Shown here: positions 7,384-11,559 of the stretch, one piece after another
How the letters are laid out: each line of letters opens with the position of its first letter
Position numbering within the stretch: the first letter of the stretch is position 1
Source: a virus
Virus genome (UHGV): UHGV-0124835
Length of the DNA stretch: 16,897 nt
Reading direction: 5' to 3' (one strand)
Translations under genes and position numbers: made by a program
The notes under the pieces: generated by a model
Databases searched by the model: none
Told to the model about the DNA's origin: nothing
What the model saw: the letters and a program-made list of their open reading frames with translations, nothing else

Positions 7384-8073
7384 CTAACCAAATCTGTTTA
7401 TGTTGAATGGTACTGATGAGATCACTTTAGACTGGATATAAAGCAGAGCTAACCCCTCTTTTTCGATGCTCCATGGTTGATAATTGGGGTTATCAGATAA
7501 CACCATGATTTTGCTTCCAATTTTTTGAAGCCTTTTCACGTAGCATTCTCCATCAAAACAAAATGCATAAATACCATCGCCATCAAAATAAGTTACTGTC
7601 TTATCAAGAAAAAGAAGGTCGCCAGGTGAGATTGTGGGAGCCATACTGTCTCCTCTGGCGTTACCTATTTCTATATTTTTGAATGCCCGATTTCCAACAA
7701 GACGTCGGGCATATTCAGGATCAAGTTCTATTGAGCGCACTACATCTATCAAGTCACCACGGACATGAGTTCCATCACCGCAACTAAACTCAACATCAAG
7801 GACATTAAATACGACGCTATCTGTTCTTGTCTGGTGTTTCTCTTGCGAGGAAAAGGTTGGTGAGGAGTCTTCACCTAAGAACCAGGATTGTGGATAACCG
7901 CTAATCTCTGATAAATGCGCGAGCTTATCACTCCGTGGAAATGTTTTTCCTGTTGTCCAGTACTGCACTGATTGCGCACTCACACCTAACTTGCGGGCCA
8001 GTTGAGCCTGAGTCCATCCTTTTGCTTTCAGCATCGCGGCTATTCGATTTTCCGTGTTTTTGACGTTCTTCAT
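7384..8073 (-). CDS. cI-like prophage repressor (N-terminal HTH, C-terminal S24 LexA-like peptidase domain)
   Basis: Track ORF trimmed to the ATG at 8073 (MKNVKNTENRIAAMLKAKGWTQAQLARKLGVSAQSVQYW...); HTH near the N-terminus and a C-terminal domain with GDSMAPTISPGDLLFLD and a KRL motif typical of S24 autocleaving repressors; divergent from a cro-like gene. Confidence 0.9.
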   Translation of the reverse strand: MKNVKNTENRIAAMLKAKGWTQAQLARKLGVSAQSVQYWTTGKTFPRSDKLAHLSEISGYPQSWFLGEDSSPTFSSQEKHQTRTDSVVFNVLDVEFSCGDGTHVRGDLIDVVRSIELDPEYARRLVGNRAFKNIEIGNARGDSMAPTISPGDLLFLDKTVTYFDGDGIYAFCFDGECYVKRLQKIGSKIMVLSDNPNYQPWSIEKEGLALLYIQSKVISSVPFNINRFG

Positions 8074-8206
8074 GACCAAATCCTGTGGGTTTCTTTACAA
8101 GGATAAATCTTTACTTGATTTTAGTGTATTCGATCCTTTTGTAACTTGCATGTTAATTTAAACTTGATGTATTCTTGATTTATAAAGTTAATATTGGTGC
8201 TTTGTT
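8074..8206. promoter_or_regulatory. immunity-region intergenic: divergent cI/cro promoters and probable operators
   Basis: 133-nt AT-rich spacer between divergent repressor genes containing four CTTG(A/C) repeats (TACTTGAT 8111, AACTTGCA 8142, AACTTGAT 8160, TTCTTGAT 8172) plus TTACAAG/CTTGTAA-like elements; exact operators and -10/-35 boxes not resolved. Confidence 0.5.
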
Positions 8207-8479
8207 ATGGAAGGAAATGATTACGACAAACTTCGTGCATTAATTGCGCAAAATGCCATAGCGCGAAATCTTGGTGTGACGCCGCAAGCGGTGAATCAGT
8301 GGTTTTCAAAAAACACAATTCCTGCTCGTTTCGTTTTACGCGTATGTGAAGTAGTTGCATGGAAGGTCACGCCACATGGCTTAAGGCCAGATCTTTATCC
8401 TCACCCTGAAGATGGAATTCCTGATTCGTTACGCAAAATTTCAAATCCAAGCTTAGCGCACACAGAGGACGAGAAGTGA
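8207..8479 (+). CDS. Cro/YdaS-like HTH transcriptional regulator
   Basis: 90-aa ORF divergent from cI; motif LGVTPQAVNQWFSKNTIPARFVLRVCEVV...GLRPDLYPHPED resembles YdaS/Cro-family proteins. Confidence 0.75.
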   Translation: MEGNDYDKLRALIAQNAIARNLGVTPQAVNQWFSKNTIPARFVLRVCEVVAWKVTPHGLRPDLYPHPEDGIPDSLRKISNPSLAHTEDEK

Positions 8480-8843: not shown

Positions 8844-8962
8844 GTCGAACCTCCTTTGGTTCTTTTGTTTATAGGGATCAAAAGGATAACTGAAGGAAGG
8901 TTCGGCACCAATAAGTACGAATGTGCGGAATCTTAAAAGAATTTATCCGTAAGGAGATGGCA

Positions 8963-9568
8963 GTGAACACCGCAATTTTTAACGACAAAGCATCCATGAC
9001 CAGCGTTGAGATCGCAGAGCTGGTGGGTAGTCAGCACTCAGATGTTAAACGTAGTATCGAACGCCTGGTTGCTAAAAACATCATCCGGAAACCGCCAATG
9101 GCTGTTTCCGAGAAAATCAATAACTTAGGTTTTAAAGTTCAATATGAGCATTACCTGTTTGAAGGAGAACAAGGTAAGCGCGACAGCATCATTGTCGTCG
9201 CACAGCTCTGCCCTGAATTCACTGCTCGCCTGGTAGATCGCTGGCGTGAACTGGAAGAACAGATCCGTAAGCCAATGAGCGAAATCGAAATGGTTGCCGC
9301 GATGGCTCTTGAAGCCGTTCGCCAACAGAAACGGATCACTCAGGTGGAAGAAAAAGTCAGCCACGTTGCTGAAACAGTCGAGCAAATTAAAAAGGGCACT
9401 ATTCGTGAGGGCTATGCCGGATATCGCCAACTGAAAGCAAAAACCGGTTTGTCAGATGATAACCGCGAGGGACTCGCTGGTATCACCCGAAAATGGGGTT
9501 ATTTCAGGTTATTGGTTGGCAGCGGTGAAAAAAAGCCGGGAGTAACCCGGCTCACTCAACATCAATAA
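8963..9568 (+). CDS. Rha-family phage regulatory protein (antirepressor-like), paralog 1
   Basis: Motif MTSVEIAELVGSQHSDVKRSIERL typical of the Phage_pRha family. The track ORF starts at ATG 8921 with no SD; an in-frame ATG at 8957 abuts the AAGGAG; the GTG at 8963 has the best SD spacing and is used here. Confidence 0.75.
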   Translation: MNTAIFNDKASMTSVEIAELVGSQHSDVKRSIERLVAKNIIRKPPMAVSEKINNLGFKVQYEHYLFEGEQGKRDSIIVVAQLCPEFTARLVDRWRELEEQIRKPMSEIEMVAAMALEAVRQQKRITQVEEKVSHVAETVEQIKKGTIREGYAGYRQLKAKTGLSDDNREGLAGITRKWGYFRLLVGSGEKKPGVTRLTQHQ

Positions 9569-9658
9569 CGGGGAGCTGTTTCGCATAAAACGGCTCCGAA
9601 ACATCCAAGAACAGTTCTAAAGATATCAGCAGCTATATGATCATTTCAAGACCAAATA

Positions 9659-9687
9659 TTGATTCTGCAATTTCGGGACGTTACACT
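9659..9687 (+). promoter_or_regulatory. sigma70-like promoter of Rha module A (TTGATT-N17-TACACT)
   Basis: Read directly: TTGATT, 17-nt spacer, TACACT; the same element recurs almost base-for-base at 10315..10343. Confidence 0.55.
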
Positions 9688-9795
9688 GTCTCTGCACCTT
9701 ATAAAGCGGGTGCCGGGGGTCGCAGCCCGGAATTGCATACGGCGATATATGACGCGCCAGCGTCTTTTTTATCGTCCGCGCTCACGCACGCCAGA

Positions 9796-9906
9796 ATTAT
9801 GGTGGGCTGGGCAGGGGAGCCGAAAGGCTCGCCGGTTTCCGTATGCGCCGGTACTGCGAACCCTGTTCAGTTCACCACCCATGAGTTTCGCAGCTCCGGT
9901 GGTGGA
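9796..9906 (+). ncRNA. c4-like antisense RNA candidate, module A
   Basis: Conserved ATTATGGTGGG box; GAAA-tetraloop hairpin 9817-9830; CCGG-closed 12-nt loop TTTCCGTATGCG (9836-9847) complementary to TGCATACGGAGG at the SD of the downstream gene; 8-bp TCACCACC/GGTGGTGG stem (9872-9879 with 9898-9905). Ends are not defined. Confidence 0.5.
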
Positions 9907-9916
9907 AGTTATCCAT

Positions 9917-9928
9917 TGCATACGGAGG
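9917..9928 (+). promoter_or_regulatory. antisense target site overlapping the SD of Rha paralog 2
   Basis: TGCATACGGAGG pairs with loop 9836-9847 over 12 positions (9 Watson-Crick plus 3 G-U); a direct repeat of the core ATTGCATACGG is at 9731-9741. Confidence 0.5.
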
Positions 9929-9936
9929 CTGCCATC

Positions 9937-10299
9937 ATGGCTACTGTCCTAACTTCCCCATTCCTAAAAATCGAAGTCGTCAACGGCAAGGCCGTTATTT
10001 TCTCCCTGCATGTTGCCTGCCATTTCAAGCGCATGCACCAGAACATCGTTGACAAAATCGAGTATCTGAACTGCTCACGCGAGTTTTTTACCCGCAATTT
10101 CATACCGGGTACTTATCACATCTACGGTGACTCCCTGCGTGGTTATTACATCACCCTTGATGGTCTGATGATGCTTCAGCTTGGGTTAAGTCTGCGCACA
10201 ATGCGGTACTACGAGAGCTGCATTGAAGCATTCCATGAGGCTGAAACCGTCCAGGGTCACTCCGCGTTCCGTCGTAATCAACGGGAGGTGCACCTATGA
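9937..10299 (+). CDS. Rha-family phage regulatory protein, paralog 2 (120 aa)
   Basis: ATG at 9937 with GGAGG 8 nt upstream; Rha-like core IEVVNGKAVIFSLHVACHFKRMHQNIVDKIEYLNCSREF...YYITLDGLMML. The track ORF extends upstream to 9637 through the leader; that extension is judged non-coding. Confidence 0.65.
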   Translation: MATVLTSPFLKIEVVNGKAVIFSLHVACHFKRMHQNIVDKIEYLNCSREFFTRNFIPGTYHIYGDSLRGYYITLDGLMMLQLGLSLRTMRYYESCIEAFHEAETVQGHSAFRRNQREVHL

Positions 10300-10314
10300 T
10301 CCGCCACCAGCATA

Positions 10315-10343
10315 TTGATTCTGCAATTCCGGGACGTTACACT
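10315..10343 (+). promoter_or_regulatory. sigma70-like promoter of Rha module B (TTGATT-N17-TACACT)
   Basis: Same element and spacing as 9659..9687, inside a ~60-nt block nearly identical between the two modules. Confidence 0.55.
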
Positions 10344-10451
10344 GTCTCCGCACCTTATAAAGCGGGTGCCGGGCGTGGAAACCCGAAATTCAATATAGAG
10401 CACAACCGCGCTCATGCGGTTTTTTCGTGTCATGAGCATCGTTACGCCCAA

Positions 10452-10564
10452 ATTATGGTGGGGCGTGCAGGGCCAACTTCGGTTGGGCCGGGTTCTATGT
10501 TGACCGGTATTTCCACCCCTGTACGTCTCACCACCTATATGGTCGTGGAAAGCCTTGGTGGTGA
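10452..10564 (+). ncRNA. c4-like antisense RNA candidate, module B
   Basis: Same architecture as module A with compensatory changes: UUCG-tetraloop hairpin CCAAC-TTCG-GTTGG (10473-10486); CCGG-closed 12-nt loop GTTCTATGTTGA (10492-10503) complementary to TCAACATAGGGG at the SD of the downstream gene; conserved TCACCACC/GGTGGTGA stem. Confidence 0.5.
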
Positions 10565-10575
10565 GTTCATTGAAT

Positions 10576-10587
10576 TCAACATAGGGG
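10576..10587 (+). promoter_or_regulatory. antisense target site overlapping the SD of Rha paralog 3
   Basis: TCAACATAGGGG pairs with loop 10492-10503 (9 Watson-Crick plus 2 G-U); an upstream near-repeat TCAATATAGAG is at 10390-10400. Confidence 0.5.
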
Positions 10588-10595
10588 CTGTCACC

Positions 10596-11147
10596 ATGAC
10601 TACTCTCCCAACCCAATCTCACCCTGAAATCACGATTATCAATGGTCGCGTTGTCACCACATCTCTTGCAGTAGCTAATTACTTTACTAAACGGCATGAG
10701 CGGGTTTTAGATAGAATTAGAAACCTCGAATGTTCCGCTGAATTTACTGAACACAATTTTGTGTTAAGTGAATACACCGACGCATCAGGCCGCAAACTCC
10801 CTTGTTACCAAATCACCCGCGACGGTTTTGCGTTTCTTGCCATGGGCTTCACTGGTAAACGTGCTGCCCGGTTCAAAGAGGCATACATCAACGCCTTTAA
10901 CCTGATGGAGAAGAGTTTATCAGGTGCCGATGCGTCTGATATGTCAGCTGTCGCACGAAACGCCAGAGGCGTATACCTGCATTTGCGTGAAATCCATCAA
11001 ATCTGGACAAGCCAGCTTTATCCAATGCTTAAGGCCGTTGAATCTCCGCTGGCTAGCAAACTGTACGACCGTGTTGGTGATGCTGTTTTTGGCGCTGCAC
11101 TTGTTGATTCCAGGCTGAATGGTTCTGACAAGGAGGTTCGCCCATGA
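10596..11147 (+). CDS. Rha-family phage regulatory protein, paralog 3 (183 aa)
   Basis: ATG at 10596 with AGGGG 8 nt upstream; Rha-like core ITIINGRVVTTSLAVANYFTKRHERVLDRIRNLECSAEF...YQITRDGFAFLAMGFTGKRAARFKEAYINAFN. The track ORF extends upstream to 10296 through the leader. Confidence 0.65.
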   Translation: MTTLPTQSHPEITIINGRVVTTSLAVANYFTKRHERVLDRIRNLECSAEFTEHNFVLSEYTDASGRKLPCYQITRDGFAFLAMGFTGKRAARFKEAYINAFNLMEKSLSGADASDMSAVARNARGVYLHLREIHQIWTSQLYPMLKAVESPLASKLYDRVGDAVFGAALVDSRLNGSDKEVRP

Positions 11148-11338
11148 TTAGTTACGAAATCATCATCTCCACTACGGAATACAGAAACGATGTATCAGTT
11201 CGCACGGATGTATCTGTCTGGCACCGTCGCTATAAATCCAGAAAAACAGCGGAACTGAAAGCGGCAGAGATGTGTGAAACCATCTCAATGAAAGGTAGCC
11301 CGGTTAAATACGTAACTACGGCGGAGGTGCGTCCATGA
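11144..11338 (+). CDS. hypothetical protein (64 aa)
   Basis: ATG overlaps the stop of the Rha gene (ATGA); AAGGAGG upstream. Confidence 0.6.
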   Translation: MISYEIIISTTEYRNDVSVRTDVSVWHRRYKSRKTAELKAAEMCETISMKGSPVKYVTTAEVRP

Positions 11339-11559
11339 TCCGCCACATCGTTAATTCCCTGTATCACCGATACAACCGTTGCCCCCGTGTGGGGCAGTGG
11401 TTCGCCACCAGCAACGGTCACGTTCTGCGGGTTTGCCTAGTCAACGCTGAAAGCCAGAAAGTCGTGTGCGAACTACAGGGGCGTAGCTACACCATCAGTT
11501 ACCCTCTGGCGGTATTTCTGTCTGGAAAAATGTTTAAGCGTCTGGGAGGTGTGGCGTGA
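11335..11559 (+). CDS. hypothetical protein (74 aa)
   Basis: ATGA overlap with the upstream stop; GGAGG upstream. Confidence 0.6.
   Translation: MIRHIVNSLYHRYNRCPRVGQWFATSNGHVLRVCLVNAESQKVVCELQGRSYTISYPLAVFLSGKMFKRLGGVA

Follow-up and report, generated by a model that had tools for sequence, protein, structure and literature searches.

Putative tandem IsrK-C4 antisense RNA switches upstream of two Rha-type regulator genes, treated as protein in current databases

Two genes for Rha-type regulators lie in tandem in the viral sequence UHGV-0124835 (16,897 nt, hereafter the window), and each is preceded by a leader that current annotation reads as coding sequence. RefSeq relatives carry the locus without any annotated RNA gene, with an 'ash family protein' or an N-terminally extended Rha instead, and part of the region is matched by 1402 of 5426 complete E. 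coli genomes (a sample). Are these leaders, analysed here within positions 9655-10600, protein-coding domains or structured RNAs? Judged from sequence and predicted structure, both are the ordinary switch of phages, an IsrK-like leader followed by a C4 antisense RNA, in two tandem copies, each of which precedes its own Rha-type regulator gene and differs from the other in its recognition sequences. The design is known from P1/P7 immI, P4 CI/seqA and Gifsy-1 IsrK, and its novelty is therefore low; the RNA families concerned were already described in 1990, 2008 and 2010. What is new is that RefSeq, Pfam (Phage_ASH) and PHROGs treat the isrK-C4 RNAs as protein, and that the leader frame is open well beyond chance with almost no constraint at the amino-acid level. 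Ribosome transit through the leader may be part of the switch.

An earlier sequence-only reading had proposed that the leaders of Rha paralogues 2 and 3 are themselves paralogous and have the character of P1/P7 c4 and IsrK RNAs; the sequence features it named are all present where it placed them. The paralogy is borne out by an 84-nt direct repeat (89% identity, copies 656 nt apart) and by 81% column identity between the aligned leaders. A recent duplication of the tandem pair was considered and rejected, because the cargo proteins Rha2 and Rha3 are only 36% identical. The parts of module A are the following.

9637-10299 (+): long ORF, 'ash family protein' in RefSeq relatives, including Rha2; codons 1-100 correspond to the module A promoter-like site, IsrK and C4, in the frame of AUG 9799
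9659-9687 (+): promoter-like site, TTGATT (9659-9664), 17-nt spacer, TACACT (9682-9687), ending 6 nt upstream of the isrK 5' end
9694-9770 (+): IsrK-like leader RNA, 77 nt (Rfam isrK, 58.8 bits)
9694-9713 (+): isrK hairpin 1 (fold, covariation)
9714-9729 (+): isrK hairpin 2, with a1 (TCGCAG, 9720-9725) in its loop
9734-9742 (+): b1, TGCATACGG, target match to b'
9751-9764 (+): intrinsic terminator (terminator scan), followed by a U run (9765-9770)
9795-9882 (+): C4 antisense RNA (Rfam C4, 83.3 bits; minimum free energy fold identical to the Rfam structure)
9799 (+): conserved AUG at the C4 5' end
9800-9816 with 9861-9877 (+): C4 closing stem
9817-9830 (+): GAAA-tetraloop hairpin, GAGCC-GAAA-GGCTC
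9831-9852 (+): b' hairpin, loop UUUCCGUAUGCG at 9836-9847
9853-9860 (+): a' single strand, ACUGCGAA
9871-9906 (+): alternative hairpin, 3' strand of the C4 closing stem with GGUGGUGG (fold, covariation)
9887-9893 (+): a2 (UUCGCAG), in the apical loop of the alternative hairpin
9917-9939 (+): b2 operator region, UGCAUACGGAGG (9917-9928) over the Shine-Dalgarno sequence GGAGG (9924-9928)
9937-10299 (+): Rha2, 120-aa Rha-family regulator, ATG 9937 (Pfam Phage_pRha; PHROG 995, 821 and 518; anti-repressor families also matched in the PHROG profile search), the predicted target gene of module A

Module B is built in the same order.

10296-11147 (+): long ORF of 283 aa, 'Rha family phage regulatory protein' in RefSeq relatives, including Rha3; codons 1-100 correspond to module B, and its ATG overlaps the Rha2 stop (ATGA), 7 nt after GGAGG
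10315-10343 (+): promoter-like site, TTGATT, 17-nt spacer, TACACT, identical to that of A at a 656-nt offset
10350-10426 (+): IsrK-like leader RNA (Rfam isrK, 61.6 bits)
10370-10385 (+): isrK hairpin 2, 4-bp stem and 8-nt loop
10375-10381 (+): a1 (GUGGAAA), in the loop of hairpin 2
10390-10401 (+): b1, UCAAUAUAGAGC, target match to b'
10404-10421 (+): terminator (terminator scan), U run after it
10451-10538 (+): C4 antisense RNA (Rfam C4, 82.4 bits; fold z -5.2)
10455 (+): conserved AUG at the C4 5' end
10473-10486 (+): UUCG-tetraloop hairpin, CCAAC-TTCG-GTTGG
10492-10503 (+): b' loop, GUUCUAUGUUGA
10509-10516 (+): a' strand, AUUUCCAC
10527-10565 (+): alternative hairpin, presenting a2 (fold, covariation)
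10545-10551 (+): a2 (GUGGAAA)
10576-10598 (+): b2 operator region, UCAACAUAGGG (10576-10586) over a purine-rich Shine-Dalgarno sequence
10596-11147 (+): Rha3, 183-aa Rha-family regulator, ATG 10596 (Pfam Phage_pRha, E 3e-30; PHROG 821, E 3e-105, plus anti-repressor families), the predicted target gene of module B

Both modules score above the gathering thresholds of the two Rfam families concerned, in agreement with the identity first proposed for them. The C4 model (RF01695, gathering score 45 bits) is matched over positions 1-87 of 87 at 83.3 bits in A and 82.4 bits in B (E about 1e-15), and the isrK model (RF01394, 50 bits) over its full length at 58.8 and 61.6 bits; the E-values of the C4 and isrK matches lie at about 1e-11 to 1e-15. 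The c4-a1b1 model (RF03163, 46.7 bits) remained below threshold, with a 25-bit match at 10337-10389 in module B and none in A. Elsewhere it reached 44.1 bits in P4 and 22.3 bits in a P1-like phage; the isrK model, which overlaps it, describes the locus better. The minimum free energy folds of both C4 regions reproduce the Rfam structure (z -4.6 in A, -5.2 in B), in which a 17-bp closing stem surrounds the tetraloop hairpin, a second hairpin whose loop has 12 nt, and a single-stranded 3' stretch. The isrK region of each module folds into two 5' hairpins and contains a Rho-independent terminator with a T run (fold, terminator scan).

The compensatory changes noticed between the two copies extend to a wider alignment of related modules from viral contigs. 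Among 87 distinct C4 cores, 96% of the cells at paired positions are paired, against 81% after shuffling and 31-47% with slid partners, and 15 pairs carry double-sided changes; the columns GCCGG/CCGGT, GGG and ATGG are uninformative here because they were fixed by the module search pattern. The tetraloop stems had been described as a compensated swap, and indeed four of their five pairs differ on both sides between A and B with all of them still paired, while all five pairs covary among the 87 cores. The 4-bp stem and its 8-nt loop, also pointed out previously at 9714-9729 and 10370-10385, correspond to hairpin 2 in the isrK model of Rfam, and isrK hairpins 1 and 2 both covary in a 92-sequence alignment. 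RNAalifold did not recover the isrK terminator in that alignment, owing to indels, and its assignment is based on single-sequence folds and the terminator scan. The promoter-like site agrees with the consensus at 8 of 12 positions in A and, identically, in B. A consensus promoter scan called the isrK promoter in neither module; similar -35 and -10 hexamers are equally spaced from isrK in divergent related modules, and the assignment is one of position and conservation only.

A third stem, between TCACCACC and GGTGGTG, had been listed beside these. It is real and conserved, but as an alternative to the C4 fold rather than an additional stem, because it is built from the 3' strand of the C4 closing stem. 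In module A, TCACCACC (9872-9879) pairs with GGTGGTGG (9898-9905). The hairpin folds at -18.1 kcal/mol in A (z -3.5) and -18.2 kcal/mol in B (z -3.0), and nine of its ten pairs covary among 91 sequences; it and the C4 fold are mutually exclusive. Covariation in 87-92 related modules is therefore found for all three stems of the sequence-only reading, that is in C4, in the isrK hairpins and in the hairpin presenting a2.

Each C4 presents two recognition elements, the 12-nt loop b' and the 8-nt single strand a', which are complementary both to an upstream pair of sites (a1 and b1, in the IsrK-like leader) and to a downstream pair (a2 and b2). Pairing was counted as contiguous pairs limited to the loop and single strand, in preference to RNAduplex energies; these were discarded as a measure of specificity since spurious partners turned up for the GC-rich closing pairs, and the energy of one cross pair was better than that of a cognate pair. 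By this count b' and b2 form 12 contiguous pairs in A and 11 in B (nine Watson-Crick in each), covering the Shine-Dalgarno sequences GGAGG (A) and AGGGG (B), 8-9 nt upstream of the Rha ATG. The corresponding values for A and B are 9 and 12 for b' with b1, 6 and 7 for a' with a1, and 7 and 7 for a' with a2. The order of parts suggested before (promoter, target, structured RNA, target at the Shine-Dalgarno sequence, gene) is thus recovered, its first element as a candidate promoter, with targets that pair as in P1 and b2 lying on the Shine-Dalgarno sequence. Between modules, Watson-Crick runs reach at most 5-6. As the a/b sequences differ, A and B should not cross-regulate, and each C4 should, by its pairing, control only its own Rha gene; the a' of module B also fits GUGGAA at 9902 in the module A leader with six Watson-Crick pairs, however, so that complete orthogonality of the two putative switches is not proven. 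When the whole window was searched for additional C4 targets with G-U pairs allowed, many chance matches appeared but no adjacent a and b pair.

The same correspondence holds in the family at large. The 109 modules examined contain 24 types of a' and 67 different b' loops, all of them with matching targets of their own, and each of the 24 a' types has its own 7-nt a1 and a2. Counting Watson-Crick pairs only (with G-U pairs the background rises to about 35%), an a1 of at least 7 nt is present in 102 of 109 modules against 3% of foreign queries, a2 in 108 of 109 against 2.9%, and a b2 at the ribosome binding site with at least eight pairs in 95 of 109 against 0.6% of foreign loops. An E. coli allele 97% identical to module A carries matched changes at b1, b' and b2, three bases having changed together in a coordinated swap.

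Each leader is, with high probability, an RNA immunity cassette complete in itself, of the type known from P1 immI, P4 CI-seqA and Gifsy-1 IsrK. Transcription would start at the IsrK-like leader from a weak sigma-70-like promoter and run into a 77-nt leader predicted to hold a1 in a hairpin loop, b1 in single-stranded form and an intrinsic terminator at its end. Most transcripts would stop at this terminator and yield a short IsrK-like RNA; those reading through would contain C4, then a2, then b2 over the Shine-Dalgarno sequence, and then the Rha gene. Mature C4 would presumably be excised by RNase P, as in P1; Hartmann et al. (1995, cited in PMC4919922) are said to have found that the 77-nt RNA of P1/P7 is matured from a longer precursor by this enzyme. 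Pairing of b' and a' with b2 and a2 would then occlude the ribosome binding site and keep the antirepressor-like Rha regulator off. The short IsrK-like RNA, offering the same targets in a1 and b1, could act as a decoy by competing for C4, and from such competition our reading of trans-activation by Gifsy-1 IsrK would follow.

The c4 mechanism of P1/P7 (Citron and Schuster, 1990), as outlined in the summaries of PMC12197685 and PMC7313666, shares with this locus the order of promoter (here a candidate one), a1/b1 leader, C4, a2 and b2 at the ribosome binding site, the C4 fold with recognition in a 12-nt hairpin loop and a 3' single strand, and a specificity set by few bases, as in P1/P7 heteroimmunity. 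The P1-like phage RCS47 has the isrK and C4 Rfam pair upstream of icd-ant, with a 73-aa icd followed by ant. P1 places the 73-codon icd between b2 and the regulated gene, whereas no icd-like ORF was found at that place in either module and b2 lies on the Rha ribosome binding site itself. The cargo of P1 is the 371-aa Ant rather than a small Rha-domain protein, and its setting is a plasmid prophage rather than the early-right operon of a lambdoid prophage, here with two cassettes in tandem. Furthermore, the AUGG frame closes after 39 codons in the P1-like phage, whereas here it runs into the cargo gene.

IsrK and C4 are considered equivalent to seqA and CI of P4 (PMC3632133), which score 60.8 bits (isrK) and 74.9 bits (C4) with the Rfam models. 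For P4 the described output is that transcription of the replication operon ends prematurely, rather than that an antirepressor ribosome binding site is occluded, and C4 pairing at this locus might likewise act mainly by premature termination or polarity in the leader. P4 has the same isrK and C4 pair, and early transcription termination there is reported to be under the control of CI RNA, which pairs with seqA and seqC. An intrinsic terminator separates a1/b1 from C4 in both modules, and in Gifsy-1 a transcriptional fusion rose 8-fold when IsrK was provided in trans. We nevertheless judge a chiefly transcriptional output unlikely, as the translational effect in Gifsy-1 was 139-fold, far above the transcriptional one, and b2 covers the Shine-Dalgarno sequence in both modules and nearly all relatives, which is the translational-block design of P1.

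This translational block can also be set beside the isrK - orf45 (STnc1160) - anrP locus of Salmonella prophage Gifsy-1 (RF01394, PMC4825925), again a lambdoid prophage with a short terminated IsrK, a read-through mRNA and an antirepressor-like downstream gene, present in one copy rather than two. IsrK bases G28/G31 pair there with downstream C162/C159, the counterpart of a1 with a' here, and orf45 has as its first start codon the conserved AUG that opens the C4-like region. IsrK binds Hfq and trans-activates the read-through mRNA; the published model stresses IsrK as a demonstrated activator, and a repressor role of the C4-like STnc1160 has not been demonstrated (PMC4825925). The orf45 stop (AUGA) overlaps the anrP start, giving translational coupling. 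No such overlap was found at the homologous AUGs present here (9799 and 10455), whose frame instead continues, free of stops, into Rha2 and Rha3, in frame with ATG 9937 and 10596.

This open frame is what the databases have annotated. PGAP names the long ORFs 'ash family protein' and 'Rha family phage regulatory protein', the leader translations score 62.7 and 35.8 bits with Pfam PF10554, Phage_ASH (gathering score 26; E 5e-17 and 1e-8), and about 100-143 N-terminal positions of the PHROG 995 and 821 profiles match the leader. Taken at face value, these labels make the leaders the N-terminal 'Ash' domain of Ash-Rha fusion proteins and the RNA-like features incidental. We hold this to be highly improbable. 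It leaves unexplained the 15 compensated C4 pairs and the three-way covariation with the targets, it ignores two curated RNA families that match at E about 1e-11 to 1e-15, and it has a candidate promoter, an intrinsic terminator and an internal Shine-Dalgarno sequence with ATG falling inside the supposed domain. The translations GWAGEPKGSPVSV and GRAGPTSVGPGSM of the long ORFs had been given correctly, together with the remark that amino acids are not preserved, which the alignment upholds. Identity at the amino-acid level is 0.51 in the leader frame (0.48 and 0.47 in the others), below the nucleotide identity of 0.67; a synonymous fraction of 0.19 compares with 0.14-0.15 for the wrong frames; and entropies of 0.87, 0.94 and 0.92 at the three codon positions give no codon periodicity and no excess variation at the third. 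The protein-level conservation expected of a Phage_ASH domain was thus not found in any of these measures. In P4, the ORF annotated as 'cI gene product' (Phage_ASH, E 4e-16) overlaps the Rfam C4 match in the same frame, although it starts after the isrK/seqA element, unlike the long ORFs here; the P4 immunity factor is treated as the CI RNA in the literature (PMC3632133, PMC10111431), and P4 epsilon belongs to a different Pfam family. We regard Phage_ASH as largely the translation of the isrK-C4 locus and not as a demonstrated protein domain.

Why, then, is the frame open? Its conservation makes an entirely non-coding account of the leaders incomplete. Between -110 and +84, 90 of 109 modules have no stop in the AUGG frame, whereas only 14 and 13 lack one in the other two; these counts are not independent, as many modules are related. 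Going upstream, the first in-frame stop lies at a median distance of 231 nt, compared with 65 and 73 nt. Average linkage was used to define 19 sequence clusters, since single linkage at 75% had joined 76 of 89 modules and gave no usable independence. The frame extends without a stop over 135 nt or more downstream in 14 of these clusters (2 and 2 for the other frames) and over 110 nt or more upstream in 12 (5 and 7). Within unique b' loops, 3 stop triplets fall in this frame, and 29 and 12 in the others (shuffle P = 0.04). The DNA may serve twice, encoding the RNAs and being translated from AUG 9799/10455 or from the long-ORF starts 9637/10296, in the manner of orf45 in Gifsy-1 and kil/eta in P4. 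Ribosome transit through IsrK and C4, rather than the peptide sequence, would then be part of the switch; moving ribosomes could melt the RNA folds, counteract the IsrK terminator or Rho-dependent polarity, and reach the Rha frame. We give this slightly less than even credence; it would refine the cassette explanation, not replace it. The module B long ORF has GGAGG, 7 nt and ATG over the Rha2 stop, whereas AUG 9799 and 10455, and the module A start 9637, have no upstream Shine-Dalgarno sequence. The open-frame excess in modules and clusters and the scarcity of stops in b' loops are to be weighed against the kinship of the modules, five to seven clusters that lack the open frame (P1-like ones included), some modules in which its product looks like junk and a real 76-aa gene lies in another frame, and the amino-acid measures above. 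Leader translation had been thought incompatible with an RNA reading, a claim that does not hold, since the counterparts in Gifsy-1 are translated (orf45, PMC4825925): orf45 starts at the homologous AUG, a tag Western detects its product, and it is needed for anrP translation though its amino-acid sequence varies.

At its widest, the picture that emerges is one in which the Ash family (PF10554, RefSeq and parts of several PHROGs) would essentially be the in-frame translation of isrK-C4, kept open for ribosome transit; shuffled Rha/Bro/Ant genes would carry dual-use RNA/ORF switches in their 5' part, tandem cassettes would form two independent channels, and the repertoire of 24 a' by 67 b' types would be a combinatorial immunity code that diversifies by three-site swaps. 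We advance this whole tentatively and with more doubt than belief. On the practical side, Pfam and PHROG profiles have absorbed the translation of an RNA, and studies that use PF10554 as a protein marker probably count RNA genes; one of them equates PF10554 with P4 epsilon, which the Pfam scan here puts in another family. For the phage itself, two Rha-type regulators beside the cI/cro switch are probably under RNA-based rather than protein-based control and, because their control sequences differ, would be separately addressable. The near-identical E. coli allele, with its coordinated swap at three sites, shows cleanly how specificity shifts at such a locus. If this reading is true, tandem cassettes with distinct a/b codes would give a single prophage two independent RNA-addressed channels.

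The two tandem leader cassettes that precede the Rha2 and Rha3 genes, modules A and B, are close to certain to be RNA cassettes of the C4/IsrK family in which the ribosome binding sites of the Rha genes bear cognate operators. The sequence-only reading had likened these leaders to C4 antisense and IsrK-like RNAs, and a scan of the entire window with Rfam at gathering thresholds bore this out, returning exactly four matches, all on the + strand, with isrK and C4 above the gathering score in both modules.

Rfam matches in the window
9694-9770, + strand: isrK (RF01394), module A, 58.8 bits (gathering score 50)
9795-9882, + strand: C4 antisense RNA (RF01695), module A, 83.3 bits (gathering score 45)
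10350-10426, + strand: isrK (RF01394), module B, 61.6 bits (gathering score 50)
10451-10538, + strand: C4 antisense RNA (RF01695), module B, 82.4 bits (gathering score 45)

The minimum-energy folds of C4 coincide with the Rfam consensus structure, at -46.2 (z -4.6) and -44.5 kcal/mol (z -5.2). The tetraloop hairpins pointed out earlier, GAGCC-GAAA-GGCTC at 9817-9830 and CCAAC-TTCG-GTTGG at 10473-10486, are present, differ on both sides in four of five pairs and form the first internal hairpin of C4, while the 4-bp stem with an 8-nt loop, found as described at 9714-9729 and 10370-10385, is hairpin 2 of isrK. Within 9655-10600 the paralogous leaders share 81% column identity over ~316 nt in a pairwise alignment, including an 84-nt repeat (89% identity, 656-nt spacing, one copy per leader). 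Rha2 and Rha3 share only 36% identity, and the conserved unit is therefore the RNA cassette and not the whole gene.

C4 carries two recognition elements, the single strand a' and the 12-nt loop b', which face upstream targets (a1, b1) and downstream targets (a2, b2).

Parts of the two cassettes
TTGATT 9659-9664, 17-nt spacer, TACACT 9682-9687: promoter-like site, module A
From G9694: IsrK-like leader, module A, with hairpin 1, hairpin 2 (UCGCAG loop) and single-stranded UGCAUACGG
9751-9764, then U6: intrinsic terminator, module A (terminator scan and fold)
24 nt: spacer between IsrK-like leader and C4, module A
C4 recognition elements, module A: b', 12-nt loop UUUCCGUAUGCG; a', single strand ACUGCGAA
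a2, module A: UUCGCAG, downstream of C4 and presented by a hairpin
b2, module A: UGCAUACGGAGG, which includes the Shine-Dalgarno sequence
ATG 9937: cargo of module A, a Rha-domain protein of 120 aa
Module B: offset by 656 nt from module A
C4 recognition elements, module B: b' GUUCUAUGUUGA; a' AUUUCCAC
Targets, module B: a1 and a2, both GUGGAAA; b1 UCAAUAUAGAGC; b2 UCAACAUAGGG

Contiguous pairing in module A amounts to 12 pairs for b'-b2, 9 for b'-b1, 7 for a'-a2 and 6 for a'-a1, and the elements of module B form 7-12 pairs with their targets. Between modules, Watson-Crick runs never exceed 5 in the b elements or 6 in the a elements, so that the two cassettes carry different addresses. The sequence GUGGAAGU in the module A leader (9902-9909) can form 6 Watson-Crick pairs, or 8 counting G-U, with a' of module B. 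A minor site of cross-talk is one possibility; coincidence is the other, since the sequence belongs to the conserved GGUGGUGG strand.

A search pattern built from invariant C4 positions only retrieved 120 loci from viral contigs, yielding 109 distinct modules with full flanks. Nearly all of these have an IsrK-like element upstream of C4, separated from it by a variable spacer, and promoter-like hexamers at the same distance. Across 87 distinct C4 cores, the proportion of paired cells is 96%, compared with 81% after shuffling and 31-47% with slid partners; 15 pairs show double-sided changes, among them all five of the tetraloop hairpin, the columns fixed by the search pattern being uninformative. 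Covariation is also seen in 5 of 6 pairs of IsrK hairpin 1. Two further loci (L029, L070) hold tandem modules, and the b' loops differ within each pair.

The strongest functional evidence, drawn from sequence comparison, is the covariation of the targets with C4. The 109 modules display 24 a' sequences and 67 b' loops in 79 combinations, and on each side of C4 every a' type has a perfectly complementary 7-nt site of its own.

Target matches in own modules and with foreign queries
a1, at least 7 nt Watson-Crick: 102/109 own modules; 3% of foreign queries
a2, at least 7 nt Watson-Crick: 108/109 own modules; 2.9% of foreign queries
b1, at least 8 nt Watson-Crick: 68/109 own modules; 2.2% of foreign queries
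b2, at least 8 nt Watson-Crick: 95/109 own modules; 0.6% of foreign queries

An allele of module A in E. coli JKHS016 (L001) is 97% identical to the window, and the positions at which it differs are concentrated in b1, b' and b2 (9734-9742, 9836-9847 and 9917-9925 in the window; 9135-9143, 9237-9248 and 9318-9326 in L001), a few others lying nearby, within the 3' strand of C4 and immediately upstream of b2. The 3-nt changes from window to JKHS016 are matched: b1 and b2 each go from GCATACGG to GTCAACGG, and b' from CCGTATGC to CCGTTGAC. Judged from the aligned alleles, these differences constitute a coordinated, natural three-way compensatory switch of specificity.

A third stem had been proposed, TCACCACC (9872-9879) with GGTGGTGG (9898-9905). 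It exists at those positions and covaries, in 9 of 10 pairs among 91 sequences (for example GCTATCGCC/GGCGATAGC), but it does not belong to the same fold as C4. Since it uses the 3' strand of the C4 closing stem, it represents an alternative conformation of the unprocessed transcript. This alternative hairpin (9871-9906 in module A, 10527-10565 in module B) joins the 3' strand of the closing stem to the downstream GGUGGUG strand and displays a2 in its apical loop. It frees the C4 5' strand, including an AUG, and is thus a possible switch of processing or translation in the precursor.

A conserved AUG (9799, 10455) stands at the 5' end of C4. Its frame is almost without constraint at the amino-acid level, yet it is kept open through IsrK and C4 and on into the downstream gene, much more frequently than either alternative frame. 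Between -110 and +84 it contains no stop in 90 of 109 modules, versus 14 and 13 for the other frames, and the median distance to an in-frame upstream stop is 231 nt versus 65 and 73. When modules were grouped into 19 average-linkage clusters as a control for independence, 14 clusters had the frame open over 135 nt or more downstream (versus 2 and 2) and 12 over 110 nt or more upstream (versus 5 and 7); in the P1-like and several distant clusters it is not kept open. The hypervariable b' loops contain 3 stops in the AUG frame versus 29 and 12 in the others (shuffle P = 0.04), a start codon close to the Shine-Dalgarno sequence is in the AUG frame in 58 of 86 modules, and the long ORF of module B has a good ribosome binding site, its ATG overlapping the stop codon of Rha2. 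There is at least one group whose real gene is in another frame and whose open-frame product appears to be meaningless. P4 kil/eta, like orf45 of the Salmonella prophage Gifsy-1, is translated and required, with a variable amino-acid sequence. For orf45 these properties have been documented (PMC4825925). An open frame almost free of amino-acid constraint suggests selection for the transit of ribosomes, not for a protein, and in many cassettes the switch probably involves the passage of ribosomes through the RNA region. The sequence-only reading was consequently wrong to hold translation of the leader frames against an RNA: the frame is kept open, orf45 is translated, and ribosome passage does not weaken the identification. 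In phage SfV (L006, 2550-3386), the open frame runs through ~100 codons upstream that resemble the stand-alone PHROG 1170, then the RNA cassette and then a downstream gene of 77 aa, making one ORF of 278 aa annotated 'orf37: immunity region'.

Public annotation treats the locus as protein. RefSeq relatives have no RNA annotated there, and their calls are an 'ash family protein' at 9637-10299 and a 'Rha family phage regulatory protein' at 10296-11147. The leader translations match Pfam Phage_ASH (PF10554; E 5e-17 for module A, 1e-8 for module B), and the first 100-143 positions of the PHROG 995 and 821 profiles correspond to the leader. In the C4 core, amino-acid identity is 0.51 in the annotated frame versus 0.48 and 0.47 in the others, with a nucleotide identity of 0.67; the earlier statement that the encoded amino acids are not preserved thus holds, as do the translations it quoted for the long-ORF frame. 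The synonymous fraction in the core is 0.19 versus 0.14-0.15, and no codon periodicity of variability was found there. It is RNA sequence and pairing that are conserved, not protein sequence. The translated isrK-C4 locus (9637-9936 and 10296-10595 in the window) is what PF10554, the RefSeq 'ash family protein' and, in their N-terminal parts, PHROG 995, 821 and 3960 represent. In P4, the ORF 'cI gene product (AA 1-137)' (L122, 8168-8584, minus strand) matches Phage_ASH (E 4e-16) and overlaps the Rfam C4 match, whereas epsilon belongs to another family, PF25738; a paper using PF10554 as an epsilon marker therefore seems to detect the isrK-C4 locus instead.

The window is the early region of a lambdoid prophage, with integrase and excisionase at the left; to the right of the cassettes follow small ORFs, replication genes and, further right, a Q-like antiterminator, as in an annotated relative.

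Genes upstream of the cassettes
7384-8079, minus strand: LexA/S24-type repressor, CI-like
8207-8479: Cro/YdaS-like gene
~8954-9568 (region 8921-9568): Rha1, Rha family, PHROG 'anti-repressor Ant', directly upstream of the cassettes

Rha2 and Rha3 match PHROG families of Rha-like regulators and anti-repressors. Rha1 has no C4/IsrK leader in the Rfam scan of the window and is not detectably similar to Rha3; within its 3' end, a hairpin (9533-9553) scores as a minus-strand terminator. Of 5426 complete E. coli genomes, 1402 contain part of the query and 94 contain 80% or more of the tandem pair. A gene-boundary repeat, GGAGGTGCnnCnATGATCCGCCAC (Shine-Dalgarno sequence, ATGA overlap and codons MIRH), lies at 10284-10307 and 11323-11346 and, in weaker form, at 11132-11155, preceding module B and a 74-aa ORF at 11335; the same CACCAGCAyATTGATT junction opens many IMG/VR modules. 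The repeated boundary has the look of a joint at which cassettes are inserted by recombination.

Rfam places the isrK and C4 pair in P4 at the positions of CI RNA and seqA, and, in the P1-like phage RCS47, immediately 5' of icd and ant. IsrK/C4 had already been equated with P4 seqA/CI and the pair recognized in lambdoid Salmonella prophages, P1, P7 and N15 (PMC3632133), as well as in APSE phages (PMC7313666) and PICI satellites (PMC10111431), and a catalogue of 2010 lists both the c4 and the c4-a1b1 motif (PMC2864571). In Gifsy-1, translation of a read-through isrK-orf45-anrP mRNA is activated by short IsrK, G28/G31 of IsrK pair with C162/C159, the counterpart of a1:a' here, and STnc1160 is a stable processed RNA overlapping orf45 (PMC4825925). 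Unlike P1, the window lacks icd; the frame equivalent to orf45 runs in-frame into the Rha gene, whereas that of Gifsy-1 stops at AUGA; and only the window, compared with P1, P4 and Gifsy-1, has two tandem cassettes. By analogy with P1, P7, P4 and Gifsy-1, C4 would be processed by RNase P and repress the Rha gene, the short IsrK-like RNA would relieve this repression, and cassettes A and B would act without cross-talk.

The original interpretation is thus correct, and the locus is an ordinary example of an already known system. Its novelty is modest and lies in the tandem cassettes with differing recognition sequences, the specificity swap at three sites in a near-identical allele, the alternative hairpin presenting a2, and the evidence that what is called the 'Ash' protein family is an RNA locus translated in a frame that is kept open.
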